Assembly (NCBI GenBank): GCA_018829905.1
Contig: JAHJST010000025.1
Span: 1 to 44,174, forward strand
DNA: 44,174 nucleotides
DNA from: Patescibacteria group bacterium
Lineage (GTDB): Bacteria > Patescibacteriota > Minisyncoccia > RBG-13-40-8-A
Direction of reading: 5' to 3'
Shown piece after piece: positions 17,930-36,400 of the stretch; the first letter of the stretch is position 1, and each line of letters begins with the position of its first letter. The notes beneath the pieces are model-generated. The model searched no databases, was not told the DNA's origin, and saw only the letters and a list, made by a program, of their open reading frames with translations. The translations under genes were made by a program, and so were the position numbers.

Positions 17930-18286
17930 TTACTTTCTAATAATACGACCTTTGTTTCTAATATACCATATAAAGCTCATTAATAAAATACCAATACTAT
18001 TTATTCCTACATCTTTTAATGCTCCGTGTCTTCCAAAAACAAAAGTTTGATGATATTCATCAGAAAAAGCATATAAAACAGCAATTATTATTGATAAAAT
18101 GATTGATTTATTACCAAATGCTCTTAAAAGTAAAAAGGTTAGAATAAAGTATTCTAACACATGAGCAATTTTACGAAGTAAAAAATCTTGTTCTAATCCT
18201 GATTCTAAGCTAGGAAGCGAAGAAAGAAGAAATATTATTCCTGCCCAGACAATGATTGGTAAATAAAATTTTAAAAATCTTTTCAC
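17930..18286 (-). CDS. VanZ family membrane protein
   Basis: IIFLLSS, RKIAHVLEY, YAFSDEYHQTFV.GR; GTG start matches the ATG of the duplicated 5' copy. Confidence 0.9.
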   Translation of the reverse strand: MKRFLKFYLPIIVWAGIIFLLSSLPSLESGLEQDFLLRKIAHVLEYFILTFLLLRAFGNKSIILSIIIAVLYAFSDEYHQTFVFGRHGALKDVGINSIGILLMSFIWYIRNKGRIIRK

Positions 18287-18287
18287 T

Positions 18288-18548
18288 TTAAAATTTGTAA
18301 ACAGAATGATCTCCAACAGAATGAAGCCATATTGTATTTTTATTTTTCAATTCAAATATTATTCTATATTTCTGATCAATAGAAAAAGCCCATAAACCAC
18401 TTAATTTACCAGAAAGCTTATGAGTTTTTAGGCTCTTATCAAATGGATTTTTTCTAAAAATATGTTCTTTTTCTTTAATCTTTTCTTTTATTTTTTTTGG
18501 AAGCTTTTTGTATTTTCTTTCAAATTTAACCGAATAATATATTTTCAT
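18288..18548 (-). CDS. RelE/YafQ-type toxin
   Basis: YS..FER.YKKL, NPF...LKTHKLSG, FSI...YRIIF, VGDH. Confidence 0.88.
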   Translation of the reverse strand: MKIYYSVKFERKYKKLPKKIKEKIKEKEHIFRKNPFDKSLKTHKLSGKLSGLWAFSIDQKYRIIFELKNKNTIWLHSVGDHSVYKF

Positions 18549-18551
18549 AAA

Positions 18552-18767
18552 TTAATCTAAGTCTTTAAAAGATTTTAAAACTTTGCCTTTTCCTAAAACA
18601 ATTTCTCTTCTGCTTTCTTCTATTTCTTTTAATAATTTTCTTTCCATCCAATCTCTTAATAAACTTCTAAAGAATTCGCTTTTTGTAGCATATTCTCCAG
18701 TTTTTACATTTTTTTCAACAACCTTGTTTAATTCAGCAGGCAATGATATATTTACAATTTTTCTCAT
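18552..18767 (-). CDS. Ribbon-helix-helix antitoxin
   Basis: IVNISLP..L...VE......YATKSEFFR.LLR; immediately upstream of the RelE gene. Confidence 0.85.
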   Translation of the reverse strand: MRKIVNISLPAELNKVVEKNVKTGEYATKSEFFRSLLRDWMERKLLKEIEESRREIVLGKGKVLKSFKDLD

Positions 18768-18773
18768 ATATTT

Positions 18774-18830
18774 GTAATATTAATTATTACTTTGTATTAC
18801 AATATTATTATAGAAAAAATAGCTTGTCAA
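18774..18830 (-). promoter_or_regulatory. TA promoter with GTAATA/TATTAC operator repeats
   Basis: TTGACA(18830-18825)-17 nt-TAATAT; GTAATA at 18774, TATTAC at 18785 and 18795. Confidence 0.6.
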
Positions 18831-18835
18831 GTATA

Positions 18836-18904
18836 TTAATATTTATTTTTCCCAATACCAATTTTACTTACAACTTTTCCTATCCTCCTTAAAAGGGCAT
18901 GCTT
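18836..18904 (-). pseudogene. 3' relic of a diverged dedA allele
   Basis: KHALLRRIGKVVSKI aligns ungapped with the dedA C-terminus KFAFFRKIGRAINKM; both are followed by TTGACAAG. Confidence 0.6.
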
Positions 18905-19028
18905 AAGCAATTTTACGAAGTAAAAAATCTTGTTCTAATCCTGATTCTAAATTAGGAATTGATGAAAGAAGAAATATTATTCCTGCCCAGATAATTATTG
19001 GTAAATAAAATTTTAAAAATCTTTTCAT
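18903..19028 (-). pseudogene. 5' fragment (41 codons) of vanZ
   Basis: 18906-19027 is a near-identical 122-bp direct repeat of 18164-18285; the fragment stops at RKIA-TAA. Confidence 0.9.
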
Positions 19029-19459
19029 AACAATTTTTTCTGTGGATGTGTTTCATGAATCTTTTTTCTAATAATATCAATAAATTTTATTGCTATTTTT
19101 ATAGATTGTTCTGTTTCATATTGGCTTATAAAGCTTATATCTTCATAAATAAACTTGTTTCTTTTTTTTCGCATATCATCAAAAAGCCCTATTAATTCTT
19201 TATGCTTTTTATCTAATTTGTTTTCTATAAAATCTATAATCGCCACATAATGACCAGGTAATGATCTTGGTCTTTTCCCAAAACTAAGCATTAAGGCCAA
19301 GCTTGCTTTAATCATGGCTTCATATGCTGTTTGATAACTTAATTCTTGATCAATTAATAAAACTTTTTTAGAAGAATTTATTTTCTTTTGTGCGCCTTCT
19401 AAAAATCTTTCTATCTGTTCAAAATTTATATCCTGTTCTTTAAATTTTTTATTATTCAT
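19025..19459 (-). CDS. HEPN-domain protein
   Basis: All-helical; AYEAM..A..AL, GH, R..RN...Y; downstream of an MNT gene. Confidence 0.82.
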   Translation of the reverse strand: MNNKKFKEQDINFEQIERFLEGAQKKINSSKKVLLIDQELSYQTAYEAMIKASLALMLSFGKRPRSLPGHYVAIIDFIENKLDKKHKELIGLFDDMRKKRNKFIYEDISFISQYETEQSIKIAIKFIDIIRKKIHETHPQKKLL

Positions 19460-19997
19460 CTTTTAAAATAATTTTATTTTTTAAAACATTCATTAAAAAT
19501 GGATCTTTGTTTTTTGTCTTTTCGTTAAATTCTTTTAATGAATAAATTATATAATTTATTTCTCTATCTAGTGTTTTCTCAATTTCCCTAATTTTATTAG
19601 AAAATTCTTCTATTTTAGGACTTCCTATAATCAATATATCTATGTCACTTAATTTATCTGTTTTTTCTAAAACAAAAGAACCGAATAGAAAAGCTTTTTT
19701 AATTTTAGAAAAACTTTCTACCAAATTCTTTAATTTTCCTTGAATTCCAGTAGTTTTAAAAATTATGCTTTTTAATTCATTGTATAGTGGATATTGTTTT
19801 TCTATTTTAAAATATCTTTGATTTCCACGATAATGACTTTTAACAATTCCTTTTTCTTCTAATTTATTTAAATCTCTTTGAAAAACACCTGGTTTTTTAT
19901 TTAAAAAACTAGCAATTTCTCTAAAATAATATTCCTTCTCTTGATTTGAATAAAGAAGGCCTAAAATTAACATTTGATTTTTAGTAAAACTAATCAT
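19452..19997 (-). CDS. wHTH + minimal nucleotidyltransferase (MNT)
   Basis: N-terminal wHTH (YFREIA..RDL.KLE..GI); GS-X10-DID; REINYI. Confidence 0.88.
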   Translation of the reverse strand: MISFTKNQMLILGLLYSNQEKEYYFREIASFLNKKPGVFQRDLNKLEEKGIVKSHYRGNQRYFKIEKQYPLYNELKSIIFKTTGIQGKLKNLVESFSKIKKAFLFGSFVLEKTDKLSDIDILIIGSPKIEEFSNKIREIEKTLDREINYIIYSLKEFNEKTKNKDPFLMNVLKNKIILKDE

Positions 19998-20007
19998 ATG
20001 CTATATA

Positions 20008-20042
20008 CATACAATTGTATGCTATTTAAATACACTTGTCAA
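20008..20042 (-). promoter_or_regulatory. MNT-HEPN promoter with palindromic operator
   Basis: TTGACA-17 nt-TACAAT; CATACAATTGTATG palindrome over the -10; the TGA of TTGACA is the dedA stop. Confidence 0.75.
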
Positions 20043-20716
20043 TTGTTATTATTCATCTTATTAATCGCCCTGCCTATTTTTCTAAAAAAAGCAAATTTAT
20101 GATCTTCTAAATTTTTAAAAAACTTTAATTTAGTAATCTTTCTCAACCAAGCAATTAAAACAATAGATATAATTATTAAAAAGATTATTACACCAATAGC
20201 CAATCCTTTAGCAATTTTTTGAGTAATATCACCAACTGCTTTATATCCCAATCCAAGAGAATAACCAATTATTAATACAGACAATATCCAAACAATAGAA
20301 GCAAAAAAAGTTGTAATAAGTACTGTTTTTTTCTTAATTTTTAAACTACCAGCAATCATTAAAACAAAAATACTTGTTCCAAGAGTAATTCTGCTAATAA
20401 ATATTGTTTTTACTACATGCTTTTCAAAATATTTTTCTATTTTTTCTAATATTTTTCTTGTTAAATGAAACTTTTTTATAAATTTATCTATAATATTTTT
20501 TCCACCAAAATATCCTAATAAATAAAAAAAGATTCCATTAATGTAATATCCAACAAAAAGAACAGCAAATAACCCAAAAAAATTAAAAAATCCAAATTTT
20601 AAAAGAACACCAGCAAGAACTAAAGTATAAGTGCCCTCAAATAGCGCACCAATAAAAGAAAATATATATCTATGTTCATATAAAAGACCAAGAATTGAAT
20701 TTACAAATAACTCCAT
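20039..20716 (-). CDS. DedA family membrane protein
   Basis: GALFEG...LVLAG, FYLLGYFGG, TIFISRI, IAGS..I, GY.LG. Confidence 0.85.
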   Translation of the reverse strand: MELFVNSILGLLYEHRYIFSFIGALFEGTYTLVLAGVLLKFGFFNFFGLFAVLFVGYYINGIFFYLLGYFGGKNIIDKFIKKFHLTRKILEKIEKYFEKHVVKTIFISRITLGTSIFVLMIAGSLKIKKKTVLITTFFASIVWILSVLIIGYSLGLGYKAVGDITQKIAKGLAIGVIIFLIIISIVLIAWLRKITKLKFFKNLEDHKFAFFRKIGRAINKMNNNN

Positions 20717-20721
20717 ATAAT

Positions 20722-23238
20722 TTAAAATAAAGTATCTTGCCCTCCATTTTTAATTCTTTTTTCATTTTCTTTAAAAACATTAATTTTACCAAATTCTCCA
20801 TCATATCCTGGTTGTATTGAAACTTTTCCTTTTCTAACCCTATCTATGCCATCTGCTATTTCTGGTAAACTAACAGAAGCTATTTTTTCCTTAGAAACAT
20901 TTAATAATATATTAAATTCTGTTTTAAAAGCTTTAATTAATGCCTTGTAATGAGTTTCTACTGTTTTTGTATTAGGACCAACATCTAAAGCATTCCCAAT
21001 TATTTCATCTAATGGAATTATATGTCTAAAAGGAATTGTATTTTTGTGCTTTTCTCCTAATTTTCTATCTGCTAACGCAAAAACTCTATTCATTACTCCG
21101 ATTGTTAATGGCTTTTTACACACAGGACATATATTGTTATGCTTGTCAGACTCTTCAGGACTTAATACTATATTACATTTTCTATGTCCATCCCAATGAT
21201 ATTTTCCTTCTTCTGGAAAAAACTCTAATGTTTCAATTAATTTTAATTCTTTTGACTCTCTTTTAATTGCCTGTTTAATTAGATTATATGATATTTTCTT
21301 TCCTTCAAAAATATTTGCTTCTCTACCGATCTTACGCGGACTGTGAGCATCTCCATTACTAATTAAAGTAATATTATCTAAAGAAGAATTGGCCCAGCTT
21401 GCTATAGGATCAGAACTTAATCCTGTTTCTATTGCAAAAATATCTTTTGAATATTCTTCAAAACATTCTTCTATTGAATCAAAGCCAGATTTAGAACCAA
21501 ATATACTAAACCATGGAGTATAACAATTATGAATTATAGCAAATTCTGCAGTATAAGAATTATCTTGTTTTACCTCTAAATTATATACATCACCCTTATA
21601 ACTACCTACTTCTATATCTCTAACAGGAATATAAATATATTTATTATCCATCCAACCATGTCTTCTTTTTAGTTTAGTGTTAAATTTTTTAAATTCAGGA
21701 GTTTTTAATAAATTAAAATCATCTTTTAAAAACGAAAGATTAGTCAAACAAAAAGAATTATAATTTGCAGTAATAATCCTATTCCCTATTTTAGACTTTT
21801 TACTATTAATTTTATCCATGTCTTGTTCTAAAATAGAAGGGATTATTCCCAATCTCAGTAAAATAATTTTCATTTGATTCATTAACGAACGAGATGAAGT
21901 TGCTCCAACATCACCACGCCACCATCCTATCAAAATTTCTTTTTGTTTTTCTAGTGGCAGGTCTAATATCCAACTAGGCAATTCTTTTGTAATTGCTGTT
22001 TTTTTATTAGAATCATTATAAAAATTATTTTTAAATATTTTTGATAAAATTTTTGAAAAATATATAATTTCTATGCTTTTAACTCCATCTCTACTATATT
22101 CCCTTGGCTCCAGATTAAAGCTTTTTTTCATTATTTTTTTTAGATCTTCAACATATTCTTCTTCGTTCTCATGAAAACAAAAAGAAATTGAATCTCGACT
22201 GTCGGTATATCCCTCTGACATATAATAACCTATCAATCTACAAAAATCTTTAGTAATTTCTATTTTATTTGGAATTAATTTTGCCCTTCCACCAAAACAA
22301 GAGATCTTGTTGTTGGTTATTTTAAATTCTTTTTTATTTAAAAAATCACTAAGTTTTATTTCTTTAATATCTTTAATTTTATCTAAAAATCTTGGGAATA
22401 TAAGAATATCACCTTTTTCAATATTTTTAGCTTGTATCCATTCTGGCTTATATTTTTTATATTCCTCATGCGTACATTTTCTATTGTCTTTGTACGCACA
22501 TATTGGCTTACAAACATTATGCGATACATTTAAACAGTCTTTATACGTCTTAATTGCATAGAATGGATGTTCAGAAGTGGTTTTTAATCCAAGTCTAAAA
22601 TAATATGGTCTAATATTATAAATCTTTCCATTATATTTTCTTTTATAAACCTCTTCTACTTTTCTCCACCTTCCTTTGTGTGTAAAAACTTTATCATTTT
22701 CAGAAACATTTTTAATTTTTTTCAATTTATTATTTACATGCAAATATGAATCGGGCAATAAACAATGAGCAGGAATAATCATACAATCTTTAGAAATTTT
22801 AAAAACAATTTTAGCTAACTCCTTAGCATCTAATCCTAATATTGGCCTACCATCTGATTTAATATTCCCTATCCAGCCTAAATGAGCATTTATTTTATCT
22901 ACAACATCAAACGAAGGAGCAAAAATTAAATTATGTATTTTTCTTACTTTACCTCCCTTGGAATAAATACTAGATATTTCTGCAGTTAAAATGAATCTTA
23001 AGTCTTTATCTATTCCATTCTTAATTTTAAATCTTTTCTTAATTTTATATAACCCTTTTTCAGCTGGTTCTAGTTTTGTTTTTAATTCTTTAAACCACAA
23101 AGGATGAGTAAAATCTCCTGTTCCTAAAATATCTATTCCTTTAATATTTGCCCATTTATCTAAATTTTCAACATCCATGTCTTTAGATGTTGCTCTTGAA
23201 TACTTAGAATGAATATGAAAATCAGCTATGTATTGCAT
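20722..23238 (-). CDS. PHP-domain endonuclease Q family protein, intein-containing (about 425 aa after splicing)
   Basis: ADFHIHSKYS, GTGDFTHP, DGRP, PAH|..TPWFS, ETGLSSD, SNGDAHS, GKYHWDGHRKC..CPVC, PGYDGEFG. Confidence 0.9.
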   Translation of the reverse strand: MQYIADFHIHSKYSRATSKDMDVENLDKWANIKGIDILGTGDFTHPLWFKELKTKLEPAEKGLYKIKKRFKIKNGIDKDLRFILTAEISSIYSKGGKVRKIHNLIFAPSFDVVDKINAHLGWIGNIKSDGRPILGLDAKELAKIVFKISKDCMIIPAHCLLPDSYLHVNNKLKKIKNVSENDKVFTHKGRWRKVEEVYKRKYNGKIYNIRPYYFRLGLKTTSEHPFYAIKTYKDCLNVSHNVCKPICAYKDNRKCTHEEYKKYKPEWIQAKNIEKGDILIFPRFLDKIKDIKEIKLSDFLNKKEFKITNNKISCFGGRAKLIPNKIEITKDFCRLIGYYMSEGYTDSRDSISFCFHENEEEYVEDLKKIMKKSFNLEPREYSRDGVKSIEIIYFSKILSKIFKNNFYNDSNKKTAITKELPSWILDLPLEKQKEILIGWWRGDVGATSSRSLMNQMKIILLRLGIIPSILEQDMDKINSKKSKIGNRIITANYNSFCLTNLSFLKDDFNLLKTPEFKKFNTKLKRRHGWMDNKYIYIPVRDIEVGSYKGDVYNLEVKQDNSYTAEFAIIHNCYTPWFSIFGSKSGFDSIEECFEEYSKDIFAIETGLSSDPIASWANSSLDNITLISNGDAHSPRKIGREANIFEGKKISYNLIKQAIKRESKELKLIETLEFFPEEGKYHWDGHRKCNIVLSPEESDKHNNICPVCKKPLTIGVMNRVFALADRKLGEKHKNTIPFRHIIPLDEIIGNALDVGPNTKTVETHYKALIKAFKTEFNILLNVSKEKIASVSLPEIADGIDRVRKGKVSIQPGYDGEFGKINVFKENEKRIKNGGQDTLF
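21526..22764 (-). mobile_element. Intein (413 aa) with LAGLIDADG homing endonuclease domain
   Basis: Starts CLLPD; block B TSEHPF; LIGYYMSEG and ILIGWWRGD helices; block F VYNLEV; ends IIHN followed by Cys+1. Confidence 0.93.
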
Positions 23239-24527
23239 AAACTTAAACCCAACCAAAACATTAATGCCCCAGAATTAAGCGTGTAAAAATAATGATCATT
23301 AAGACTAATAATTAAAAATCCTATTATTAAAAAAGCAAAACCAAGAGTTTTTGTTTTAATTAAAGTTTTTAAAACAAATATACCAATTAAAATTAAACCA
23401 ATAATTCCTAATTCTGTTGCTATTAATAAATATATATTATGCACTGGTTGATAAGCCCAATCAGGAATAGAATCATTATTTTTTAATTTTTCTAAGGTTG
23501 GTTCTATGCTTTTAATCATATTTACACCAGCTTTTAAATATACAGGATAATTTTGAGAATGAAAAACAAAATTTCCTATTCCTATCCCTATAACGGGCTT
23601 TTGTTTTATCATTTCAATGGCTATTTTATTATAGAAAAACCTTAAATCAACTGCTTCTTCATTTATTGATATTGTAAAAAATCTAGCTTTTAAATATGGA
23701 GATAGAATTAAAATAGATAATATTGAAATAATTAGAAAAACAAAAAACAAAGATATTAATTTTTTACTCAATTCTCTTCTCTCTTTATTATTGCCCATTT
23801 TTTTAATTACAAAAAATTTAATTAATAAATACAAAGGTACAAGAATTAAAAAAACTGTTAAGGATGTACGAGAAAATGTTAAAAACAAAGTAAAAATAAA
23901 AAGAGAAAAACCAATTAAATATATTTTCTTAAAATCAAATTTTAAAAAAAGAACTAAAAAACAAAAAATGCATAAAAGCATAAAACCAGCTAAAACATTT
24001 GGATGAGATAATGAACCATAAGCTCTTAATATTTTATCGTCATTAAATATAAAGCTAGCAACATTATATGCTCCTGGCTTTAAAACACCAGGTTCAATAA
24101 ATTTTAAACCCAAGCTAGATTGTTTAATAAATTGTAATATTCCTAAAACTGCTTGAAAAATTCCAGAGGAGAATATAATTAATAAAATATTCTTTAAATT
24201 TAAAAATTTAATATTTCTTACAATATATATGTATAAAAATGAATAAGATAATAATTTAATAAATCTAAAAACAGCTATTGATTGATTAGAAGAATAAAAA
24301 ATTGAAATAAAAGAAATAAATAAAAACAAAAACAAGAATATATCTTGTTTTTTAAATTTAATCCTTTTATTAATTATTGAAAATACAAATATACCAATTA
24401 AAATAATATCTGATAAATATAGAAAAAAATTATTCCATTCATTTGCTTGCCAATTAAATACATACCTTACTTGAAAAGGAATTAAGAAAATAAAAACATA
24501 AAAAAGAAATTTTTCTAATTTAATCAT
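23226..24527 (-). CDS. O-antigen ligase (WaaL/Wzy_C) family membrane protein
   Basis: Multi-TM; RAYGSLSHPNVLAG, LTFSR, GIGIGNF, PVHNIYL; start 24527 or 24539. Confidence 0.88.
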   Translation of the reverse strand: MIKLEKFLFYVFIFLIPFQVRYVFNWQANEWNNFFLYLSDIILIGIFVFSIINKRIKFKKQDIFLFLFLFISFISIFYSSNQSIAVFRFIKLLSYSFLYIYIVRNIKFLNLKNILLIIFSSGIFQAVLGILQFIKQSSLGLKFIEPGVLKPGAYNVASFIFNDDKILRAYGSLSHPNVLAGFMLLCIFCFLVLFLKFDFKKIYLIGFSLFIFTLFLTFSRTSLTVFLILVPLYLLIKFFVIKKMGNNKERRELSKKLISLFFVFLIISILSILILSPYLKARFFTISINEEAVDLRFFYNKIAIEMIKQKPVIGIGIGNFVFHSQNYPVYLKAGVNMIKSIEPTLEKLKNNDSIPDWAYQPVHNIYLLIATELGIIGLILIGIFVLKTLIKTKTLGFAFLIIGFLIISLNDHYFYTLNSGALMFWLGLSLCNT

Positions 24528-24546
24528 TAACTTAATCATACAAAAT

Positions 24547-24573
24547 AAAAAAACAAACAGCAAAAACTGTTTG
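24547..24573 (-). terminator. Intrinsic terminator (degenerate copy at about 31855-31878)
   Basis: CAAACAG-TTTTTG-CTGTTTG followed by T7 on the - strand. Confidence 0.6.
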
Positions 24574-24593
24574 ATTTTTATTAATAAGTATAT

Positions 24594-25223
24594 CTATTTT
24601 AATACATAATCTTTAACTTCTTTTATTATATAATTTTTAATACTTTGCCAATTAATGTTTGAGTTTAAAATTCTTATTTTTGATCTATTTTGCTTTGTTT
24701 CTGCATCTTTAAAATAAAGCAACGACCTTAAACACAAATACTCATTAAAGGTTTCTGGATATTTTTTCTTTGTAAATTCAAGAATTTTTTTTAAACTAAA
24801 TTTTTTAATTAAAAAATAAATATCTATAAAATCTCTTTTCGTTCCTCTCCCAATAATTGCTTCTACTTTCATTGCTGCAATATCCTTTATATTTGCTAAT
24901 AATAAAAGTTTATAATTATCAAAAGGACCAATTAAATTATAAGGATATTTAAAAAAAGATATATCTGTTATACCTATTTTAAACTCAAGAGTATTTTCAG
25001 AATAGATAGGCTCAGAAATATCTTTTGAAAATTCTTTTTTAAAATCAAGATAAAGTTTTTTTGAATCAAAATCTTTTTTTGAATAAAAATCAAAATCTTT
25101 AGATGTTCTATGGCCTAATTGTAAGGCCAATGCTGTTCCACCGGCTAAATAAAAATTATTCTTTAAAAATTCCATTTTTTTAATTATCTTTTTTTGATTC
25201 TGATTTAAAATTTCATCTTTCAT
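24594..25223 (-). CDS. AbiEii/AbiGii nucleotidyltransferase toxin
   Basis: FYLAGGTALALQLGHR.S.DFDF, IAAMK..AI..RG..RDFID. Confidence 0.9.
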   Translation of the reverse strand: MKDEILNQNQKKIIKKMEFLKNNFYLAGGTALALQLGHRTSKDFDFYSKKDFDSKKLYLDFKKEFSKDISEPIYSENTLEFKIGITDISFFKYPYNLIGPFDNYKLLLLANIKDIAAMKVEAIIGRGTKRDFIDIYFLIKKFSLKKILEFTKKKYPETFNEYLCLRSLLYFKDAETKQNRSKIRILNSNINWQSIKNYIIKEVKDYVLK

Positions 25224-25567
25224 AATCTTATTTCTTTTTTTAAAATTCTTTTCATTATTCTTATCTTTTCTAAAGATGGAAATATTTCACGAATAGCTAA
25301 TTTGTATTTATCTTCACTTATCTTAAGATTAAAAATCGTTAACCAATAATTTAAAACATTATCATACCAAAATCCTCTTTTGGGATTTTTTAAAACGTCT
25401 TTTATTTGCTTTTTAGAATAATTATTAAAAAGCCATTTTAAATGTTTTTTGGTTCCATGATTTAAAACCTGCTGAATAATTAAATTTTTATCCTTTTTAA
25501 TATCTATATCTTTTAAGTCATAACTCCATAAAACTGATTCTAAAAACTTAGGTAATTTTTTTTCCAT
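25220..25567 (-). CDS. DUF6922-like partner protein (putative antitoxin)
   Basis: LWSYD...ID...DK.LIIQQVLNHG....KWL...Y; ATGA-coupled to the AbiEii gene. Confidence 0.75.
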   Translation of the reverse strand: MEKKLPKFLESVLWSYDLKDIDIKKDKNLIIQQVLNHGTKKHLKWLFNNYSKKQIKDVLKNPKRGFWYDNVLNYWLTIFNLKISEDKYKLAIREIFPSLEKIRIMKRILKKEIRL

Positions 25568-25606
25568 ATATCATCATTATACCACAAATATATGACTATT
25601 TCAAAC

Positions 25607-28911: not shown

Positions 28912-28923
28912 TATTTTTTAAAT

Positions 28924-29604
28924 TTAAAATTTAGTTTCTTTTACTTTGTCTATATAATAACAAAGGTCTTTACAGTCTTTTCTTGATTTTGGTGGTTGTG
29001 GCTGGTCTAAGATTTCTCTTGCTTTTAGAAGAATTTTTGGGATTTTTTCTAAATCTATTTTTATATCTACAATATATGTTTCAAATCCCAGTTTAAAATT
29101 TTCATCACTATCTAGATCATCATGAGGATGACAATAAATTAAAGATAAATTTCTTATTGGTTTAAATCCATATTTTTCAGCTAAAAATGCATAACAATTT
29201 AATTGTATTTCATATAAAGGAAATAGTTCGTCTTGTCTTTCTGTAAATTTTGCTGTTTTATAATCAATAATATGATATGCATTATCTTTTGTTTTTAAAA
29301 TATCATCTGGTTTTCCAATCAATATCCAATCACCATGCTCTACTGGAAGTTTAAATGTTGTATCATCTTCTACAACTTCTATTGCATCTGGAATTGGTAA
29401 CCATTCTGGTGGTTGGCCCTGATTATTAAAAGAACGATGAGTGCTTCTTTTTGAAACAGAGTCCAATGTACTAAATATTCCTGGAAATATTCCTGGTGCT
29501 TTTCCTATGTGTCTTTCATACCAAAAACATCTTGGACAAAAATCTGGCATGTTTAATTTTCCCAAGTCTTTTGCGCTTATTGATTTTAAATAGTTTTGTT
29601 TCAT
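28924..29604 (-). CDS. Solo RecB/Cas4-like PD-(D/E)XK nuclease
   Basis: CPRCFW, GKPDD, IIDYKT, QLNCYA, C-terminal C...C. Confidence 0.82.
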   Translation of the reverse strand: MKQNYLKSISAKDLGKLNMPDFCPRCFWYERHIGKAPGIFPGIFSTLDSVSKRSTHRSFNNQGQPPEWLPIPDAIEVVEDDTTFKLPVEHGDWILIGKPDDILKTKDNAYHIIDYKTAKFTERQDELFPLYEIQLNCYAFLAEKYGFKPIRNLSLIYCHPHDDLDSDENFKLGFETYIVDIKIDLEKIPKILLKAREILDQPQPPKSRKDCKDLCYYIDKVKETKF

Positions 29605-29668
29605 TTTTTTATAATTTTTCAAAATTATTAATACTGTCAAACTAAAAATTAAAATTTTTATAAATTTT

Positions 29669-29806
29669 CTATGTTCTACAAATTATACAATTAAAACAAT
29701 AATCACAACATTTCTTACCACAATTTTCAATAATCAATCTTTTGAAAAATTTTCTAAACTTTTTCAATTTTTCTAGTTCTTTTTGCATAAATTTGTTTTT
29801 TGTCAT
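29669..29806 (-). CDS. Small Cys-rich ORF (45 aa), possibly truncated
   Basis: MTKNKFMQKELEKLKKFRKFFKRLIIENCGKKCCDYCFNCIICRT*; below the ORF-track size cutoff. Confidence 0.45.
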   Translation of the reverse strand: MTKNKFMQKELEKLKKFRKFFKRLIIENCGKKCCDYCFNCIICRT

Positions 29807-30260
29807 TATAAACTAATTTTTTCTGAGGATTTTTCTTTTCAATTATTTTTTCTATTCTTTTAATAAAATCTTCAGCTGTTTTTATGGCATTTTTTGCTTC
29901 AATTTCAGAAATTATTAAATCTGTGCCATAAATTAAATAATTTCTTTTTTGTTTCATTCTTTTAAATTTTTCTATTAAAATCTTAAATTCTTTTCCTAAA
30001 TAAGATTCACAAAATCTTATTGTAATTATATGAGAACCAACGGTTCTTGGCTTGTATCCTAAAGAAAATATTAAAGCACGACCAGCTAAAATCATTGATT
30101 TGTATGCTTGCTCAAAAGCAGACTCATCAATGTTTTCCTTTAATAAAATTTTTGCTGCTTTGATTGACCTGCAAGACTTAATTAGCACGCTTTCTACTTC
30201 CTTAAGGCTGAATTTCTTTTTTTGTAAACTATTATCATCTAATAATTTTTTCAAATTCAT
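29754..30260 (-). CDS. HEPN-domain protein
   Basis: AYKSM..AGRAL, SH, KRNYLIY; homolog of 19025-19459, sharing PQKKL. Confidence 0.82.
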   Translation of the reverse strand: MNLKKLLDDNSLQKKKFSLKEVESVLIKSCRSIKAAKILLKENIDESAFEQAYKSMILAGRALIFSLGYKPRTVGSHIITIRFCESYLGKEFKILIEKFKRMKQKRNYLIYGTDLIISEIEAKNAIKTAEDFIKRIEKIIEKKNPQKKLVYNDKKQIYAKRTRKIEKV

Positions 30261-30819
30261 TTTGATTTCCAATAATAAATATTTTTGGATTACTTATTAT
30301 GTCTTCTAAAAAAACAGATTCTTTTGATTTTTTTCTAAAATCTTGTTGAGAAAATATAACATAATTTATTTCTCTGCTTAAATATGTTTCAATTAATGAA
30401 ATATTTTTAATTAAAATATTTTCATCTGGATTACCTATTATCATTAAATCAATGTCGCTAAATTGATCTTCTTTTTGTTTTGCAAAAGAACCAAAAATAA
30501 AAGATATTTTAATATTTTTTATTTTTTTTAAACCTTTTTCAATTCTTGCTTCTATTCCTATTGTTTTAGAAACTATTTTTTTTATTTCTTCAAAAAGTGG
30601 TGTTTTTTTATTTAAAAAATAGTAAAGCTGATTTCCTTTTTTCTCTTTTTTAAACAAACCAATTTTTTCCAAAGACAAAAGCTCTCTTCGAATATTTCCC
30701 ACTGAAATTTCTAGTTTTTTTTCTAATTCTCTTAAATAATATTTTTTATCAATATCTGTAAAAAATAATTTAAGGATTTTTTTTCTAGTTTTGGATTTTG
30801 AAATTCTTAAAATATCCAT
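30235..30819 (-). CDS. wHTH + MNT antitoxin
   Basis: YYLRELE...S.GNIRREL..LE..GL; GS-X10-DID; REINYV. Confidence 0.88.
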   Translation of the reverse strand: MDILRISKSKTRKKILKLFFTDIDKKYYLRELEKKLEISVGNIRRELLSLEKIGLFKKEKKGNQLYYFLNKKTPLFEEIKKIVSKTIGIEARIEKGLKKIKNIKISFIFGSFAKQKEDQFSDIDLMIIGNPDENILIKNISLIETYLSREINYVIFSQQDFRKKSKESVFLEDIISNPKIFIIGNQNEFEKIIR

Positions 30820-30823
30820 ATTT

Positions 30824-30874
30824 ATTGTAGTCAATACATACTTCAATTGTAGTCGATTTAAACTACGATGTCAA
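30824..30874 (-). promoter_or_regulatory. MNT-HEPN promoter with GACTACAAT direct repeats
   Basis: TTGACA-17 nt-TACAAT; ATTGTAGTC at 30824 and 30846. Confidence 0.72.
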
Positions 30875-30930
30875 GTTCTTATTTTATATATTTTTGTATG
30901 TTTTTATCTCGCGGGTTTGGATATGTTTTA
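30868..30930. repeat. About 60-bp degenerate direct repeat of 31606-31668
   Basis: atgtcaagtt.ttattt..tatatttttgtat.tttt.a.ctc.cgggtttgg.t.tgtttt present at both sites. Confidence 0.8.
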
Positions 30931-31156
30931 TATATTTAAATTATCTACTATATTTATATTTGTTAATTAATTAAAAAATTTACTATTAACTTTATCATAA
31001 TATCTTTATTAGTATGTTCCACATTGGAACATACTAATTTTTTATATAATTTTTTACTATCTAAAATATTGTTTATATATTTTGTAATCACTGATTTTTT
31101 AATTCTAAAATGATTTTACTATCTGTTTTAAATAATTTTGTTTCATTTTTTTATAA
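30931..31156 (-). pseudogene. Collapsed relic of the nuclease-rhuM-nuclease block
   Basis: 31126-31156 vs 29584-29614: 30/31 identical; IILELK fragment of rhuM; 30931-31007 resembles 27879-27951. Confidence 0.78.
31008..31038. repeat. Perfect 14-bp inverted repeat
   Basis: ATTAGTATGTTCCA-CAT-TGGAACATACTAAT. Confidence 0.8.
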
Positions 31157-31364
31157 AATCTTCTTTGGTTAGTTTTGATTGTCTTAAAATAGATTTAAAT
31201 GTTCCTACTGGTATTTCTTTTGAATGAATAGGGACAACAACTGTTAATGTTTCTTTTTTTGTAATTTTTCTATACTTAACATGACTTCCTTTTTGAGAAA
31301 TAAAAAGAAATCCTCGTTTTTCGAGAATTTTTATTATATAACGAGAAGTAAAAATTTTAGACAT
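31143..31364 (-). CDS. hicA: HicA family toxin
   Basis: IK.LE..GF...SQKGSHVKY, VVPIH.KEIP.GT..SILRQ. Confidence 0.92.
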   Translation of the reverse strand: MSKIFTSRYIIKILEKRGFLFISQKGSHVKYRKITKKETLTVVVPIHSKEIPVGTFKSILRQSKLTKEDFIKK

Positions 31365-31575
31365 ACTTTAATTGATGCGTAGTAATAGTCGGTTGTTCCA
31401 CCTTTATAATCTCTGATTTTGGAATATCTTCTAAATATAATTCTAAGGCTTCTTCTAAATTTTTTAAAGCCTTACTTCTAGTGTCTCCGAAACTAGAAAC
31501 ATCCACATTAAGACATTGAGCAACGTAATATTTACCTTCTTTCCATGTTATATATATAAATTTATTCTTTTTCAT
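31357..31575 (-). CDS. hicB: HicB family antitoxin (short, no DNA-binding domain)
   Basis: EG.YYVAQC....VSSFGDT...AL.NL.EALELYLE. Confidence 0.9.
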   Translation of the reverse strand: MKKNKFIYITWKEGKYYVAQCLNVDVSSFGDTRSKALKNLEEALELYLEDIPKSEIIKVEQPTITTHQLKYV

Positions 31576-31759
31576 ATATTTATATTTTATTATTTAAAAA
31601 ATTAAATGTCAAGTTTTTATTTCGTATATTTTTGTATTTTTTACCTCACGGGTTTGGGTGTGTTTTTTGAGTTTTTTGTTGTTTTTCGTGAGGTGGTTTT
31701 GTTTTTGTTTTTTGGTTGTTTTCGTGAGTTTTTAAGCTGATTTTGTGGTTTTTTGTTTT

Positions 31760-31810
31760 TTATTCAATAATTTCTTCTTGTTGTATGGTTTCTTCTGGTT
31801 GTGTGGTTGA
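31760..31810 (-). pseudogene. 3' relic of an allele of the giant fibre gene
   Basis: PEETIQQEEIIE* vs PEQTPQSEAVIK*: 6/12 identical, same distance to TAA, followed by an A-run in both. Confidence 0.62.
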
Positions 31811-31904
31811 CTATGGTCCTGATAATCCTTTAAACATTAAATTTTAACATAATTAAAAAACAAACAGTAAAATGTTTGTATTTTGAATAATAAATATATT
31901 AAAT

Positions 31905-32201
31905 TTATCTTGATTTAATTCCTAATTTAAATTCTAATTTCCTAACTCTTTTTTTTAAGTCATTTACATCAAATTGAAAGGCTGTATTACCTAGTCTTAA
32001 TTTAATGTCTTCATTGGCCTGTTCTATCCTTTCTAATCTGTTCTCTACCTTATCTAATCTGTCATCTACCTTATCAAATCTTTTATCTACTTTATCAAAT
32101 CTTTTATCCATATTATCAAAACCACCTTTAACCATTTCAGCTGTAGGAAATATTTCTTTTTGGGCTTTTATTAGTTTTTTGATATCTTTATCTGTAAGCA
32201 T
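31905..32201 (-). CDS. Small coiled-coil protein with heptad repeats
   Basis: FDNMDKR-FDKVDKR-FDKVDDR-LDKVENR-LERIE; 21-bp tandem DNA repeats at about 32033-32121; promoter TTGACA-16 nt-TAAAAT 6 nt before the ATG. Confidence 0.75.
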   Translation of the reverse strand: MLTDKDIKKLIKAQKEIFPTAEMVKGGFDNMDKRFDKVDKRFDKVDDRLDKVENRLERIEQANEDIKLRLGNTAFQFDVNDLKKRVRKLEFKLGIKSR

Positions 32202-32262
32202 AGTTTAATTTTATCAAATGTTTATTCTATGTCAAGTTTTTCATTTTTATCCATAAAAAAAC

Positions 32263-32357
32263 TTGACAAGGGGTTTTTTATAATATAGAATTATAATATC
32301 ACGATGAGAGGGCACGCCTAAGGTTTCGTCCGAAGGTTACTCCCTCTCTTTTGTTTT
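32263..32357 (+). ncRNA. Putative small RNA 1 (promoter plus about 60-nt hairpin) convergent with NYN1
   Basis: TTGACA-17 nt-TAGAAT; GAGAGGG(32306)...CCCTCTC(32348) followed by TTTTGTTTT. Confidence 0.55.
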
Positions 32358-32849
32358 GCCCAATTTATGGTTTAAATCATCTATATAAATAAAATATTTA
32401 CGAAACTTTCTTAATAATGCAGAATATTTTCTACGATTAGGAATTATTATACGGAAGAGTTTTCTTTGTTTTTCTAAATATTCTATTAAACAATGAAAAT
32501 CTCCATCACCAGAGACAATAATTGCTTTATCATAATTAGGATATTCAATCATTGTATGTAATACTAATTCTGCATCAACATTTCCTTTTATAAAATTTTC
32601 TTCTTTCTTTTTGTATTCAAGGGTTGGTTTGAAAATAACAATATAACCAGTTTTTTGTAAAAAAGTATACAATGCCTCATTGCCTGGAACATAACCAATA
32701 AAAAGAAAGCTCTTTGTAACCTTATACTTGTCTTTAATATAAATATAGAATTTAGCAAAATCTAATTCCCAGCCACGATCTTTAATTGCTAAATTAAGAT
32801 TCTGACTATCTACAAAAGCATAATTATTTTCTTTTATTTTTTGACTCAT
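32337..32849 (-). CDS. NYN (LabA/DUF88, PIN-like) domain nuclease
   Basis: AFVDSQNL, KGNVDAELV, VSGDGDF: intact acidic active-site set. Confidence 0.93.
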   Translation of the reverse strand: MSQKIKENNYAFVDSQNLNLAIKDRGWELDFAKFYIYIKDKYKVTKSFLFIGYVPGNEALYTFLQKTGYIVIFKPTLEYKKKEENFIKGNVDAELVLHTMIEYPNYDKAIIVSGDGDFHCLIEYLEKQRKLFRIIIPNRRKYSALLRKFRKYFIYIDDLNHKLGKTKERE

Positions 32850-32913
32850 ATTATATAGCTTATTTTGATAATAAGTTGTTTTTTTTATTCATAAAAAAAA
32901 CTGTAAAAAAAAC

Positions 32914-32994
32914 TTGACAAGAGGTTTTTTATAAATTATACTGAATAATGTGATAGCACTCTGGGGTGTCCTTTGGACAGCCCCAGATTTTTTT
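32914..32994 (+). ncRNA. Putative small RNA 2 (promoter plus about 45-nt hairpin) convergent with NYN2
   Basis: TTGACA-17 nt-TATACT; TCTGGGG-TGTCC-TTT-GGACA-G-CCCCAGA followed by T7. Confidence 0.55.
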
Positions 32995-33429
32995 ATTGAG
33001 AAATTTCGTTTTTTAATTTGTGTAGATCAATATATTTAGCTCTTTCTAATAATTCTTTAGAAATACGCCCTCTTGTGGACATAACAATAATCCATTTACT
33101 TTTCTTTTTAATTCTATTTCGAAAGCTAATTCCATATCAAGATTTCCTTTGAGCTTATCGCGATAACTAGATATTTTTATTTTTTTAATAGCTTTGGTTC
33201 TTAAAATATATCCATTAATGTCTAGCATATCTAAAAATTTCTGTTCATTTTGCTTGTTTTCGTCATAAGCAGCGTAAATAAAACATTTTACATCCTTGCC
33301 ACATTCTTTTTTAAAATATTTCATTAATTTTTCATAAGAAATCTTCCAACCCAAAGTCCTTTGAGCATAAAAAGTATTAGCTGCGTCTATAAAAACATAT
33401 ACTTTGCCTTTAATAAATTTCTTAATCAT
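32993..33429 (-). pseudogene. NYN domain gene with internal deletion and frameshift
   Basis: VFIDAAN and KGNLDMEL present, SGD.DF missing; C-terminus KWIIVMSTRGRISKELLERAKYIDLHKLKNEISQ* continues in another frame to 32993. Confidence 0.82.
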
Positions 33430-33460
33430 ATAGCTTATTTTAATAATAAGTTATTTTTTT

Positions 33461-36400
33461 TTATTTAATAACTGCTTCTGATTGTGGTGTTTGTTCTGGT
33501 TCAATGACTGGTTTTTCAATTGGCTGTGGTTCTTCTATTGTTGGTTGTTCAACAACTGGCTTTAATAATTCATCAATTACGGGGATAGATTCCTCTGGAG
33601 CAATGTCGGCAGAACCATCTTTATCTGGGGTTGGTTCTTCAACAACTGGTTCTAGTACTGGGGTTGGGGTTGGTGTTGGTGTTGGTGTTGGTTCAATAAT
33701 TTCGGGTTCTAAAGGAGGGGTTTCTTCCTCTATTATACATGTGGAATCACAGCCGTCTCCGTCTATTTTATTGCCGTCATCACATGATTCTCCTGGTTGT
33801 ACAACACTATCTCCGCAAAAAGCTTCGACAACTCCGGCATTGTTATTATCGGATGCAATATCGGCATCTGATGCAATGTCGGCAGGAGAATCTTCCTCAT
33901 CTACTAATAAAATCCAGTAATCAAATTCTAGGGGTTCTGGGGTTACGTCGCTTAAGCGGATTGTAAATCCAGCTCCTTGTGCTTTTTCTGATATGTAGTA
34001 AGTTCTGCCTCCTGTGTCTGAGGTAAATGTAATGAATATTTTTGAATTTGTTTCAACTAGTTTATTCTTTACTCTGTATTCTATTTGTTGGGCTGGGAAT
34101 ATGTCTGAACCAACAATAGAATCTTTGTCTTTTTGTTTTTTAACTCTAAATTGTTCTACTGCTAGTTTAGTAATATTTGTTATTCCGTCTTTTATTGTTA
34201 TTCCTAGATTCTTTAAAGTGTTAATAATTTGGCTTACTATGTTTGTATCTAATGATGGAGGAAGAATAGAATGTTTAATTGTTATATTATCCTCTTTGCT
34301 TATTGATGTTCCATTCTCTTTTATTTTTATTAACTCTTTTTCATTTATACATGTTTTTCCTATACATAGTTTATTACCTATGTGTAAATCTTTGGATATT
34401 GATGCTGTGCCTGCGACTGTTAGTTTGTAGGTTGGGTTAGTTGTTCCTATGCCGACGTTATTTGAAGCGTTATCTACAAATAACGTACCACTATCTACAT
34501 TAAAATCACCTGCGACGGTAAGACCTCCTGCAAAGCTGGAACTTGCTGTTCCTGATACGGTTAAAACACCTGTTAATGCTGATGATGAGGCAAGAATTCC
34601 GCCTGCAACTTCTAACTTATATAGGGGTGAAACATTTCCGATGCCGACGTTGCCTGTGGAGTTGATTGTTATTGATTCAATATTTTGTGGTGCATTAATT
34701 ATATTCATTATTGAAAACATTTCGCTAAATGTTTGGGCCCATAGACCATGTAATTTTTCATATTCTATTGCTTTTTGATTATCAAATAATTCAGTAGTTT
34801 CTGTATGAACCGCTTCTGGTAGTATTGCTTCAACTTCCTGAGCAATCATACCTATCTGTGTTTCTTGGTTTTTATCTGGATCTGTCCAATTAAATGTTAC
34901 CCCTCTTAATTGAGATGCTTTTTCTAATGCACTTGTAACTGTTGTTATATTTGTTTTTAAACGTTCATCAGAAGATGAATGATATGCGCCAAAAACTCCA
35001 CCAACATATCCATCATCTTCAATCCAAAACACATCGCTTCCTGCGTGCTGAACATGCACAAAACTGTCCGCATCATTATTATCACTGTCCATATTTATGT
35101 ATAAATCATCTTTTGCATAATAATATCCATAAGTAGAATACCCTTGATAAGTAGTTGCAGTTATTGTTCCAGAAGCATTAAAAGCAGTTCTATCTATCGT
35201 TGCTTCTAAGAGCGCGTCTGCCAATGTTCCTATTGAAAAGAAGGATGTTGCACTGTCTCCTGTTAAGGCAGATCCTGCTTCAGCATCACCAGCAGCATAA
35301 TTACCAGTAGTATCTGTGCCCAAAGCAACTGAATTAGCAGCAATTGTTGTTGTAATTGCTGTTGTTCCTGAACCAGTAACATCTCCTGATAATGTAATTG
35401 TTTGATTTCCTGTAAGATATGAAGAATCATTGGTCCACATAGATATATTTCCTGTAGCTCCTGTTAATGCTCCTCCAGTAAGTATGGCTGTGCCATCTGT
35501 TAAGGTTCCTCCTCTAATTATGTCTGTAGCTGTTAATGAATCAGATATTGATGCACGTACAAAATCAAACTTAATACCTCCTGTAATATTACCTGATAAT
35601 TTAATATTACCTACAACATCTAATTTTTCTGCTGGCCCCGTCGTCCCGATGCCGACGTTGCCGCTCGTTCCATAAATCCCCATTCGCACCGTTCTTGCAC
35701 TACCATTCCAATTAGACAATTCTACATTCGTAACATTGGAGGAAGGATTAGAAAATCTCATTCCACCCCACGAAGAGGCAGGTGAACCTACACGAAAATC
35801 AGTTGCGGAGTGAGAAGTGTCATTTGAACCCATAGAAAATTTGAAAATAACATCATCATCAGTTGTCCCAGTACCCGCAACCTCAAGTTTTCCAGTCGGG
35901 TTCGTCGTCCCGATGCCGACGTTGCCTCTTTGTGTTCCGCCCCCAATAGTCATTGCGATACTTGAACCGCCCACATTTCCCGTAACAAAATTGATATTGC
36001 CGTAAGTGCCGCCACTGGCCGCATAATTATTTACGATATTCGTGTCGACATAATTACTGCCGAAACGAAATGGCCCCGCCCCGCCATTATTCTGCTCAAA
36101 CTCCGAAGTATATACCGCTGCTGTGGCTCGTATTATTCCGCTGCCACCTCCGTTGACTGGGACGGTTTGAAAGTTGCCCAGAACCAAATTCGTGCCCGTG
36201 GTTTCAGCCTTAAAGACGTTTAGCAAAGCCCCTGGACTCGTTGTCCCGATGCCGACGTTGCCTGATGTTGTTAATGTTCCCACTGTTAACCCAGCGTCGC
36301 CACTATCATCAGCCAGTCTAACCGCTAAAGTTGTTGCGCTCTTTTTTAATGCAGGAAAAGAAGAAGTCGTGCCACCAAATTTAAGCATTGAAAAATCAGT

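Follow-up and report, generated by a model that had tools for sequence, protein, structure and literature searches.

How does a bacterium with a genome of 641,130 bases come to carry a pile of toxin-antitoxin and defence cassettes at one place with no integrase in sight? This question is raised by a stretch of 44,174 nucleotides (nt), hereafter the window (contig JAHJST010000025.1 of assembly GCA_018829905.1, Patescibacteria group bacterium), which is contig C23 of G000, the genome under study (27 contigs, 96% complete). The first 14 kb hold housekeeping genes, including four aminoacyl-tRNA synthetases, and from there to the contig end every gene lies on the minus strand; GC content is ~25% throughout, except in a giant gene (41-47%). 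Positions 17930-33466 carry at least nine toxin-antitoxin or defence cassettes on the minus strand, equipped with their own promoters. Between these cassettes lie duplicated, diverged ends of flanking genes and spacers, and at 30930 and 31828 two such pieces meet in the order and orientation expected when one cassette unit is added to another. Older units are eroded, and the same type of scar recurs elsewhere in the genome. In our reading, the stack probably grew by homology-assisted additive integration of DNA that carried a different cassette at the same position.

Genes were annotated using Pfam, PADLOC and Rfam, and repeats were collected by self-BLASTN and local alignments; the genome-wide repeat set comprises direct pairs on the same contig that lie less than 20 kb apart (E <= 1e-4), repeats internal to the giant gene being excluded. 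Relatives (G001-G043 and others) come from a 60-genome comparison set. In the interval 17000-33520, 10 direct pairs of at least 43 bits were found, including the paralogous pair MNT1/MNT2, as compared to a mean of 0.08 pairs in 60 dinucleotide-preserving shuffles (best score 47.3 bits), and the repeat pairs are thus not a product of chance. The cassette region represents 2.4% of the genome, yet it contains 9 of the 54 local direct pairs detected genome-wide. Copies within pairs differ, with identities of 78-97%. An initial annotation, made from the letters of the window, had placed five junctions with duplicated, diverged fragments in this region, and real repeats indeed exist at all five places; its description proved largely right, its interpretation partly so.

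Read along the minus strand, the region is composed as follows. A and B denote upstream and downstream flanks, 'A and B' their truncated copies; the large slot lies between the giant gene and waaL, the small slot between dedA and vanZ.

33461-44134, minus strand: giant repeat-rich gene, 3557+ amino acids (aa), running off the contig; flank A of the large slot.
32913-33429, minus strand: NYN1 RNase pseudogene (open part 33046-33429; Pfam NYN positions 1-85 of 145).
32850-32886, minus strand: NYN2 upstream element, with a copy after the giant-gene stop (33425-33461).
32337-32849, minus strand: NYN2, intact NYN-domain gene (Pfam; PADLOC NYN).
32255-32283, plus strand: antisense promoter element 3' of NYN2, with a copy 3' of NYN1 (32906-32934).
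31905-32201, minus strand: cc98, a coiled-coil open reading frame (ORF) of 98 aa, preceded by an 11-of-12 promoter of its own; in G009, a homologue neighbours waaL.
31829-31907, minus strand: junction 4 B', waaL-upstream copy (parent 24519-24601).
31750-31800, minus strand: junction 4 'A, giant-gene-end copy (parent 33451-33501).
31606-31666, minus strand: spacer S; its end lies in the hicB -35 box.
31143-31575, minus strand: hicB-like gene (DUF7387) and hicA (Pfam; homologues with 69-81% aa identity in G006 and G002).
31126-31156, minus strand: copy of a nuclease start region (parent 29584-29614, 226/238-aa nuclease), overlapping the hicA stop.
30931-31007, minus strand: junction 3 B', Fic end and 342-aa nuclease start (parent 27879-27951).
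30868-30929, minus strand: junction 3 'A, spacer S', a copy of S ending at the MNT2 -35 box.
29669-30846, minus strand: MNT2, HEPN2 (PADLOC PDC-M05A/B) and a 45-aa ORF.
28924-29604/29640, minus strand: Cas4-like PD-(D/E)XK nuclease, first gene of the block 26877-29640.
27907-28911, minus strand: RhuM-Fic (PADLOC PDC-S23).
26877-27905, minus strand: 342-aa PD-(D/E)XK nuclease, last gene of the block 26877-29640.
25669-26880, minus strand: AbiEi cassette, with AbiEi at 25998-26810 (PADLOC E = 1.9e-70) and AbiEii at 25669-26001.
25613-25662, minus strand: junction 2 'A, nuclease-end copy (parent 26883-26932).
24594-25567, minus strand: DUF6922-AbiEii cassette (Pfam/PADLOC).
23226-24539, minus strand: waaL-like O-antigen ligase gene (Pfam Wzy_C), likely start ATG 24539 or 24527, with start forms present among protein records; flank B of the large slot.
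20039-23256, minus strand: backbone genes, namely an 844-aa gene with an intein and dedA.
19025-19997, minus strand: MNT1-HEPN1 cassette; the stop of HEPN1 and the ATG opening the vanZ fragment overlap (ATGA).
18906-19028, minus strand: junction 1 B', vanZ fragment (first 41 codons).
18768-18905, minus strand: spacer with the RHH promoter (at 18830).
18288-18767, minus strand: RHH antitoxin and YafQ/RelE-like toxin (Pfam).
17930-18286, minus strand: full vanZ (GTG start 18286, 118 aa); flank B of the small slot.
Beyond vanZ, in this order: a liaF-like gene, smpB and the transfer-messenger RNA (tmRNA) gene.

Junction 3 (30930) is a clean joint between two flank copies, and the fusion of a relic block with a repeated upstream spacer that the initial annotation had described there is borne out by the alignments. 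On one side, 77 nt (30931-31007 and 27879-27951, 87% identity) comprise the last 15 codons of RhuM-Fic and the first 27 nt of the 342-aa nuclease gene without its ATG; on the other side, 62 nt (30868-30929 and 31606-31666, 87%) repeat the spacer upstream of hicB. S' begins 1 nt beyond the B' copy and runs to the -35 box of MNT2. The hicBA homologues of G006 and G002 lack spacer S in their upstream regions; similarity to them extends from near the -10 box to the hicA stop, and S is thus part of the context rather than of the hicBA cassette. Directly after hicA follow the 31-nt copy from the start of the next nuclease gene (31126-31156 and 29584-29614, 97%), ~118 nt without assignment, the Fic/nuclease copy and S'. 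A longer Fic relic upstream of 31007 was considered and rejected (41% aa identity over 46 aa, E = 0.01), and only the last 77 nt are counted as homologous. The succession of a unit end and a unit start, together with the nuclease start shared by the units (97% over 31 nt), could also result from tandem duplication of a flank-cargo-flank segment, in which one cargo was subsequently replaced by homologous exchange and parts were then deleted. This scenario appears improbable: it takes three steps per junction as compared to one integration and one deletion, and the cargos are unrelated (hicBA versus MNT-HEPN; NYN/cc98 versus the rest).

Junction 4 (31828) represents the second joint of the B'::'A type. 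Its B' part (31829-31907 and 24519-24601, 79% over 84 nt) as well as its 'A part (31750-31800 and 33451-33501, 78% over 51 nt) score higher than all of 500 shuffles each. The initial annotation had recognized the giant-gene end correctly, but its second partner, addressed as waaL promoter and start, consists mainly of the AbiEii stop, a spacer and a terminator hairpin (CAAACAG...CTGTTTG plus T-run; 24573-24554 in the waaL-upstream parent), followed by at most 7 waaL codons. The giant-gene-end copy, which covers the last 12 codons, the stop and an A-run, is the weakest element of this junction, with a window-level E of 2.6e-4 that falls short of the 1e-4 applied genome-wide. The two copies are separated by 28 bases without assignment.

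How could such joints arise? We propose that the incoming fragment would consist of a short piece of a shared flank, i.e. a gene end or spacer of 25-130 nt, and foreign cargo. Pairing at this piece would leave it on both sides of the cargo, and the far end would be closed by an illegitimate joint. Integration may have proceeded through a single, putatively RecA-dependent crossover with a nibbled and recircularised fragment (Campbell-type), or through homology-facilitated illegitimate recombination (HFIR) of a linear fragment, both being known routes to just such a product, and later deletions between short repeats would have eroded the older units. The donor would have been a sister strain and the DNA would have entered by natural transformation; a route for DNA uptake is encoded in G000 by ComEC (199.5 bits) and DprA (258 bits). 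The data do not separate the two routes of integration. The first is favoured by observations made for E. coli conjugation, as reported in PMC3240628: when a linearised plasmid unable to replicate was integrated, 56 of 60 clones had arisen by single crossover of a nibbled, recircularised molecule, thereby duplicating 109-950 bp of the locus, and the other 4 of 60 by HFIR, which deleted rather than duplicated.

Junctions 1 and 2 are of simpler make. At junction 2 (25663), the AbiEi-AbiEii cassette (26880-25705), which is homologous to a cassette in G013 (72% nt identity), is exactly bracketed by the last 16 codons of the 342-aa nuclease gene (26883-26932 and 25613-25662, 88% over 50 nt), and the repeated nuclease 3' end noted there in the initial annotation is real. 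The working nuclease ends with ...KLKP, its TGA being located within the TTGACA of the cassette, and the downstream copy reaches a stop of its own after ...KLKK. The AbiEii protein of this cassette is shortened to 110 aa. A 257-aa protein from a sister strain, P0179, matches residues 1-69 (97%) and 66-110 (98%); relative to P0179, an in-frame internal deletion bounded by two DFL motifs has removed aa 70-212, in contrast to the 3' truncation assumed initially.

At junction 1 (18906), the first 41 codons of vanZ are copied right after HEPN1 (18164-18285 and 18906-19027, 94% over 122 nt). Homology ends at 18906 and is followed by a 138-nt spacer with a promoter, the RHH-YafQ pair and the full vanZ gene, whose GTG is placed directly after the YafQ stop. 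The vanZ copy had been described correctly (at 18904), but not the dedA end to which it was said to be fused: within 18770-18905 the best local score is 18, below the mean of the shuffles (20.4), and 440 out of 500 of them reach it. A relic of a PolX end in 18768-18905 was also considered, and BLAST against the PolX ends of nine relatives and the whole genome yielded no match.

Junctions 1 and 2 are explained equally well by insertion in situ with long target duplication, that is, a staggered break or template switching copies a target of 24-132 nt, and the copies then diverge with no allele of another strain being involved. PMC2853133 describes such events for restriction-modification units, whose repeats measure 46-423 bp and whose hosts are mostly naturally competent. 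Cargo between direct repeats, as these events would leave it behind, is also found at the sites 10447/11934 of contig C19 and 45284/46815 of contig C12 as well as in G010 (24 nt, 100%) and G012 (37 nt, 95%), all described below. This process gives no two-flank joints as present at junctions 3 and 4, and we consider it possible but rather unlikely as the origin of the stack.

The vanZ fragment likewise speaks against duplication in situ. It encodes residues I-I-N at positions where the full vanZ of the window has V-L-S. Among eight full-length members of the VanZ cluster, I-I-N is present in P0126, P0130 and P0131 and a mosaic V-I-N in P0128 and P0129, while the V-L-S members are two gene calls on the window's own contig and one on a contig of 44,138 nt. 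When the VanZ protein of the window is compared with P0131, three of the four differing residues fall inside the duplicated 41 codons, and at position 23 the relatives have I or V, the full gene of the window L. Since I-I-N is carried by working full-length VanZ proteins and the fragment is ancestral-like at position 23, it is not a decayed copy; by its residues, it looks ancestral. Either the two vanZ copies may derive from different alleles, or conversion between the repeats may have shuffled them. The I-I-N proteins share the YafQ-derived upstream read-through of the window, and the 118-aa form of VanZ is present among exact-sequence protein records.

Is the scar confined to this locus? A genome-wide scan for local repeats revealed the same type of scar at five further sites of G000 outside the window, two of them with AbiE-type cargo, and three of the four AbiE-type cassettes in G000 are bracketed by the duplicated end of the upstream gene. 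On contig C19, a cassette composed of a 194-aa gene and AbiEii lies between two copies of the 3' end of TrxR2, a thioredoxin-reductase-like gene (10447-10578 and 11934-12065, 94% over 132 nt). The working TrxR2 ends with FLKT, its TGA being inside CTTGACAAG, and the relic ends with NWLRS and a stop; outgroup TrxR proteins (76-77% identity) end with NWLKD or NWLKH and share the TG/TS residues of the relic. The copies are 94% identical over 132 nt, but in the last 15 nt of TrxR2 the value falls sharply to ~60%, the encoded tails being similar (FLKT versus WLRS), which looks like a recombination boundary between diverged alleles and counts against long target duplication. On C12, the 3' end of a 100-aa ORF (45284-45357 and 46815-46890) brackets a 156-aa ORF, a DUF6922 gene and an AbiEii-like gene, whose product is 37% identical to the AbiEii of the window. 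At the second site on C19, a 232-aa bPH_2 gene opens with the first 119 nt of the next gene (15347-15495 and 16075-16224, 94% over 150 nt). At C4:1130-1672 and C13:831-1367, the GC-richer 3' ends of two genes are repeated ~400 nt downstream, past a terminator hairpin (83-84% over ~130 nt).

Some of these places deserve a comment of their own. The gene pair at C19:15347-16224 (bPH_2, 232 aa; 428 aa) lies between split transketolase genes and shares its upstream spacer, too. The layout on C4 and C13 resembles C-terminal displacement at Rhs-type loci. Other local repeats were judged not to be scars, namely the LAGLIDADG ORFs on C12, pilin-like N-termini on C13 and structured-looking non-coding repeats on C20 and C24. 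In the C12 case (16400-19200), three LAGLIDADG_2 homing-endonuclease ORFs follow in a row with flanking sequence repeated, and they are probably introns in an rRNA gene.

Scars of this kind are not restricted to G000, and two independent parallels in relatives support a recurring process. In G012, a pair of HTH (XRE) and Peptidase_M78 genes immediately precedes waaL and is enclosed by 37-nt copies (95%) spanning the start of waaL. In G010, HEAT-repeat and GNAT-like genes at the TrxR2 site, which lies outside the window, are enclosed by perfect 24-nt copies of the TrxR2 end; the HEAT-repeat gene of this locus (L120; G010:C41 700-4182) contains 102-nt tandem repeats, and the dehydrogenase behind it is cut to 113 aa. 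The site between TrxR2 and GAPDH is empty in G001, G011 and G006 (family or order level) and occupied by a gene of the isocitrate-dehydrogenase family in four others. In G001, the giant gene is followed by a spacer that is found again ahead of three later genes in the giant-to-waaL interval. Around the homologues of the cassettes in G013, G012, G006 and G002, no self-repeats were detected beyond the waaL case of G012.

Junction 5 (32891) turned out to be of a different nature. The repeats are real (33425-33461 and 32850-32886, 92% over 37 nt; 32906-32934 and 32255-32283, 97% over 29 nt), and NYN1 and NYN2 share only 30% aa identity (tblastn), yet their short flanks are alike. NYN1 has homologues in G002 and G043 (73% and 65% aa identity), and the DNA matches to NYN1 reach down to 32913. 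In both relatives a shared module 3' of the gene comprises a GC-rich hairpin, a short conserved stretch and an antisense TTGACA promoter, and a AAAATAAGCTA motif is located on the 5' side; the AAAATAAGCTA part of the NYN2 upstream element also precedes the G043 homologue. As these flanks accompany NYN genes in G002 and G043, they are parts of the cassette rather than pieces of neighbouring genes, and the initial annotation was right about repeated NYN flanks but not about their being duplicated neighbour flanks. Alignment with the intact homologues of G002 and G043 reveals a 73-nt internal deletion in NYN1, which together with the loss in AbiEii confirms the erosion of units that had been proposed. 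Each NYN gene is also opposed by a convergent unit on the plus strand (32255-32350 and 32906-33020), in which an 11-of-12 sigma-70-like promoter is followed by ~45-60 nt and a GC-rich hairpin with T-run over the NYN stop. This unit, which matched no Rfam family, may encode an antisense antitoxin RNA (type I or type III-like).

Several observations weigh against additive integration from sister strains and need to be set beside its support. The initial annotation had generalized the pattern geneA-[cargo1]-geneB'::'geneA-[cargo2]-geneB to all junctions. A two-flank joint in the right order and orientation is present at 30930 and 31828; junctions 1 and 2 retain one duplicated flank each (B' at 18906, 'A at 25663), the second flank piece being absent, and at 32891 the flanks are cassette-intrinsic. 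Third codon positions account for 17 of 43 differences between copies, which is no excess (p = 0.24), and in view of this neutral outcome, duplication in situ followed by decay may account for the copies as well. Variants corresponding to the relics are not seen as full-length alleles: all three other cluster members of TrxR2 with a C-terminus have the form of the working copy, and so do both other members for the 342-aa nuclease. The claim that the copies stem from alleles of different strains is thus backed at junction 1, where sister strains have I-I-N in full-length VanZ, and finds no match for the TrxR2 and nuclease relics. Among proteins of sister assemblies, whose contig DNA was not read, no single-cargo allele is apparent, and since sister contigs appear stacked as well, the integration events would predate the sister strains. 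Finally, DNA taken up by transformation enters the cell single-stranded, which renders recircularisation less obvious.

Sister assemblies also bear on whether the joints exist in any cell. G000 was assembled from a metagenome into 27 contigs, the joints are known here from the assembled contig, and co-existing strains could have been merged into a chimera. Proteins of both junction-1 cargos are listed on equal-sized contigs (4445, 9249, 14086 and 23394 nt) of other assemblies, along with different VanZ alleles. For the I-I-N proteins the sizes are 4445, 9249 and 14086 nt, and the same values recur for MNT1 variants. The size of 23,394 nt recurs for vanZ, HEPN1, waaL, AbiEii, Fic, the Cas4-like nuclease and MNT2, and that of 9,682 nt for waaL, AbiEii209, Fic and the intact 257-aa AbiEii. 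If equal size denotes the same contig, as we presume, the stacked gene content would be present in several other assemblies, and the 9682-nt contig would hold waaL, AbiEii209, the 257-aa AbiEii and Fic together. Moreover, the copies of each pair differ (78-97%), truncated B'::'A fusions would need reads of their own, and the scar type is found in other genomes, too (G012, G010). A chimeric origin of the joints is therefore very unlikely.

None of the 60 genomes searched for relatives belongs to the same genus. A metagenome scan with WaaL recovered no strain-level DNA (best match 52% aa identity). In five groundwater metagenome runs from four other studies, 0.74-0.88 of sampled words of the interval 24400-33600 were present, a measure that is uninformative on joints. 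The backbone infC-smpB-liaF-vanZ ... dedA-X-waaL is kept in family- and order-level relatives. The initial annotation expected single-cargo alleles in their dedA-vanZ and giant-waaL intervals, and family-level relatives carry other genes there instead. Between dedA and vanZ (L101-L108, L116), these are DUF1858 and PolX-PHP DNA polymerase genes in 9/9 cases and a gene for an MFS half-transporter in 7/9. None of the three was found in the G000 assembly by tblastn; MNT1-HEPN1 and RHH-YafQ thus occupy their place, and by this comparison the interval is not a family-wide cassette slot. The giant-gene-to-waaL interval varies among relatives as well, its cargo there not being of the toxin-antitoxin type, and homologues of the C-terminal region of the giant gene lie upstream of waaL in G001 and G004. 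Homologues of the Cas4-like nuclease, RhuM-Fic and the 342-aa nuclease occupy separate contigs in G012.

A few features around the stack are recorded here for completeness. The giant gene is packed with 100%-identical internal repeats of ~113-122 nt, and the contig break probably falls inside it. Contig C18 (1-3300) opens with a 96%-identical piece of this repeat and giant-like sequence, beside genes that neighbour waaL in relatives. The 844-aa gene contains an intein with LAGLIDADG motifs (21519-22765), which is missing from the matched homologues of relatives, where both flanking parts are adjacent.

Could a site-specific system, be it integron-like or served by an integrase in trans that recognizes a conserved site (e.g. 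the CTTGACAAG box), have assembled the array? The left ends of cassettes coincide with a -35 box: the TGA stops of dedA (20039-20042), the 342-aa nuclease (26877-26880) and TrxR2 (C19:10587-10592) fall within the TTGACA -35 box of the cassette that follows, and the left end of the cassette thus terminates the host gene. Of the 51 CTTGACA copies in G000, 7 fall within this region, an enrichment of ~5-fold given its 2.5% share of the genome, and a promoter stretch of 19 nt is common to the RHH cassette and the AbiE cassette on C19. As a recombination site, TTGACA/CTTGACAAG was nevertheless rejected; the motif is enriched but reads as promoter consensus. Eight 11-of-12 promoter matches occur in 17500-33600, five of which precede cc98, hicB, MNT2, DUF6922 and MNT1, and two represent the antisense promoters at the NYN 3' ends (plus strand, 32263 and 32914). 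When 10-of-12 matches are included, the 238-aa nuclease, AbiEi and RHH are also preceded by such a site, so that most cassettes come with their own consensus-like promoter; in total, promoter-like sites are no more numerous than in shuffles.

In line with the initial annotation, no recombinase domain was detected in the window ORFs of at least 80 aa that were scanned, three ORFs of 142-181 aa (8476-12900) being left out. The cassette ORFs contain no integrase or transposase according to Pfam, serine recombinases and transposases not having been searched genome-wide. PF00589 matches in G000 are found solely on C14, in two pieces of one 747-aa frame; this split tyrosine-recombinase match (C14:13548-15347) may be a Xer-type gene interrupted by an intein. 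An integron integrase IntI is thus absent next to the array in the Pfam scan of the window. Cassettes with own promoters differ from promoterless integron cassettes, and no attC site is indicated by Rfam, which in 17000-34000 returned tmRNA only, no dedicated attC model having been run. The term integron-like is hence apt for the outcome but not for the system. The duplicated stretches are different gene ends of 24-132 nt and contain no single att site. An island at a tRNA or tmRNA gene does not fit either, as there is no integrase and, by self-BLASTN, no repeat of the tmRNA end in the stack; the tmRNA gene itself (~17000-17171, the match being cut by the searched interval) adjoins smpB at the edge of the cassette region. 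Overall, site-specific assembly appears exceedingly unlikely.

Additive integration by host recombination invites a broader, rather doubtful speculation for ultra-small genomes: cassettes may act as plug-in units, in which the TGA within the -35 box at the left end terminates a core gene, and RecA-driven capture of sister alleles would stack them rather than replace them. If true, the locus would serve as an integron-like reservoir without integrase, its history being preserved in the flank scars, and the process would provide a general way of building integrase-less defence islands. Little is understood of how this lineage gains genes. The four scars nested within 15 kb are consistent with a single, simple process that is independent of a dedicated enzyme, and recurrence of the scar (five sites in G000, G012, G010) makes this process testable by population sequencing of one groundwater species.

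Which known systems does the locus resemble? With Campbell-type integration as described for E. coli (PMC3240628), it shares an insert flanked by a partial duplication of the locus, a new closure joint and the lack of a site-specific enzyme. Here, in contrast, the duplications are 25-132 nt long, natural and ancient, several being nested in one locus, and the host, whose genome measures 641 kb, is uncultivated; RecA dependence and a circular intermediate are putative. HFIR has been proposed for arrays of orphan immunity genes in type VI secretion system (T6SS) clusters of Vibrio and at Rhs and contact-dependent inhibition (CDI) loci (PMC5361080). Successive addition of modules, retention of older modules or displaced ends and an integron-like outcome without integrase are common to these arrays and our locus, as is the proposed mechanism with one homologous anchor and one illegitimate joint (PMC5361080). 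However, the cargo here consists of self-promoted toxin-antitoxin or abortive-infection pairs, not of 3' ends of one large toxin gene, and the leftovers are ends of unrelated housekeeping or flank genes.

For restriction-modification units, insertion with long target duplication was reportedly described by Nobusato in 2000. The later account of this process (Furuta 2010, PMC2853133) shares with the present case the lack of mobility genes and non-identical direct repeats of more than 30 bp over the 3' end of a neighbour, its hosts being mostly competent. Repeats above this length are seen at 122, 50, 77, 62 and 84 nt in the window and at 132 and 150 nt on C19, and the inserts, as those considered in PMC2853133, are shorter than 20 kb and devoid of integrase and transposase genes (Pfam on cassette ORFs). 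The cargo, by contrast, is not of the restriction-modification type, but comprises AbiE, RelE/YafQ-RHH, HicAB, MNT-HEPN, NYN, Fic and Cas4-like nucleases. The authors tied the duplication to DNA breakage by restriction enzymes (PMC2853133), whereas most cargo here is without known DNA-cleaving activity (AbiE, RelE/YafQ, HicA), which argues that the duplication comes from host recombination and not from the cargo. An empty site is available here at family level and for the TrxR2 site only. A literature search joining both terms returned no report of long target duplication for toxin-antitoxin cassettes, which is not proof of unpublished status; in PMC2654758, long target duplication is named in a reference only. 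The locus also extends long target duplication to cargo without known DNA-cleaving activity.

Finally, the locus can be compared with integrase-less defence hotspots between core genes, where variable defence cargo is likewise found without obvious mobile-element machinery (PMC10250203). The assembly of hotspots that lack mobile-element genes is acknowledged as an open question (PMC10250203, Discussion), and in contrast to these hotspots, the scars of additive events are visible here. Taken together, the phenomenon itself is ordinary, and the locus exemplifies, clearly and in several layers, a known class of recombination scars with a new kind of cargo.

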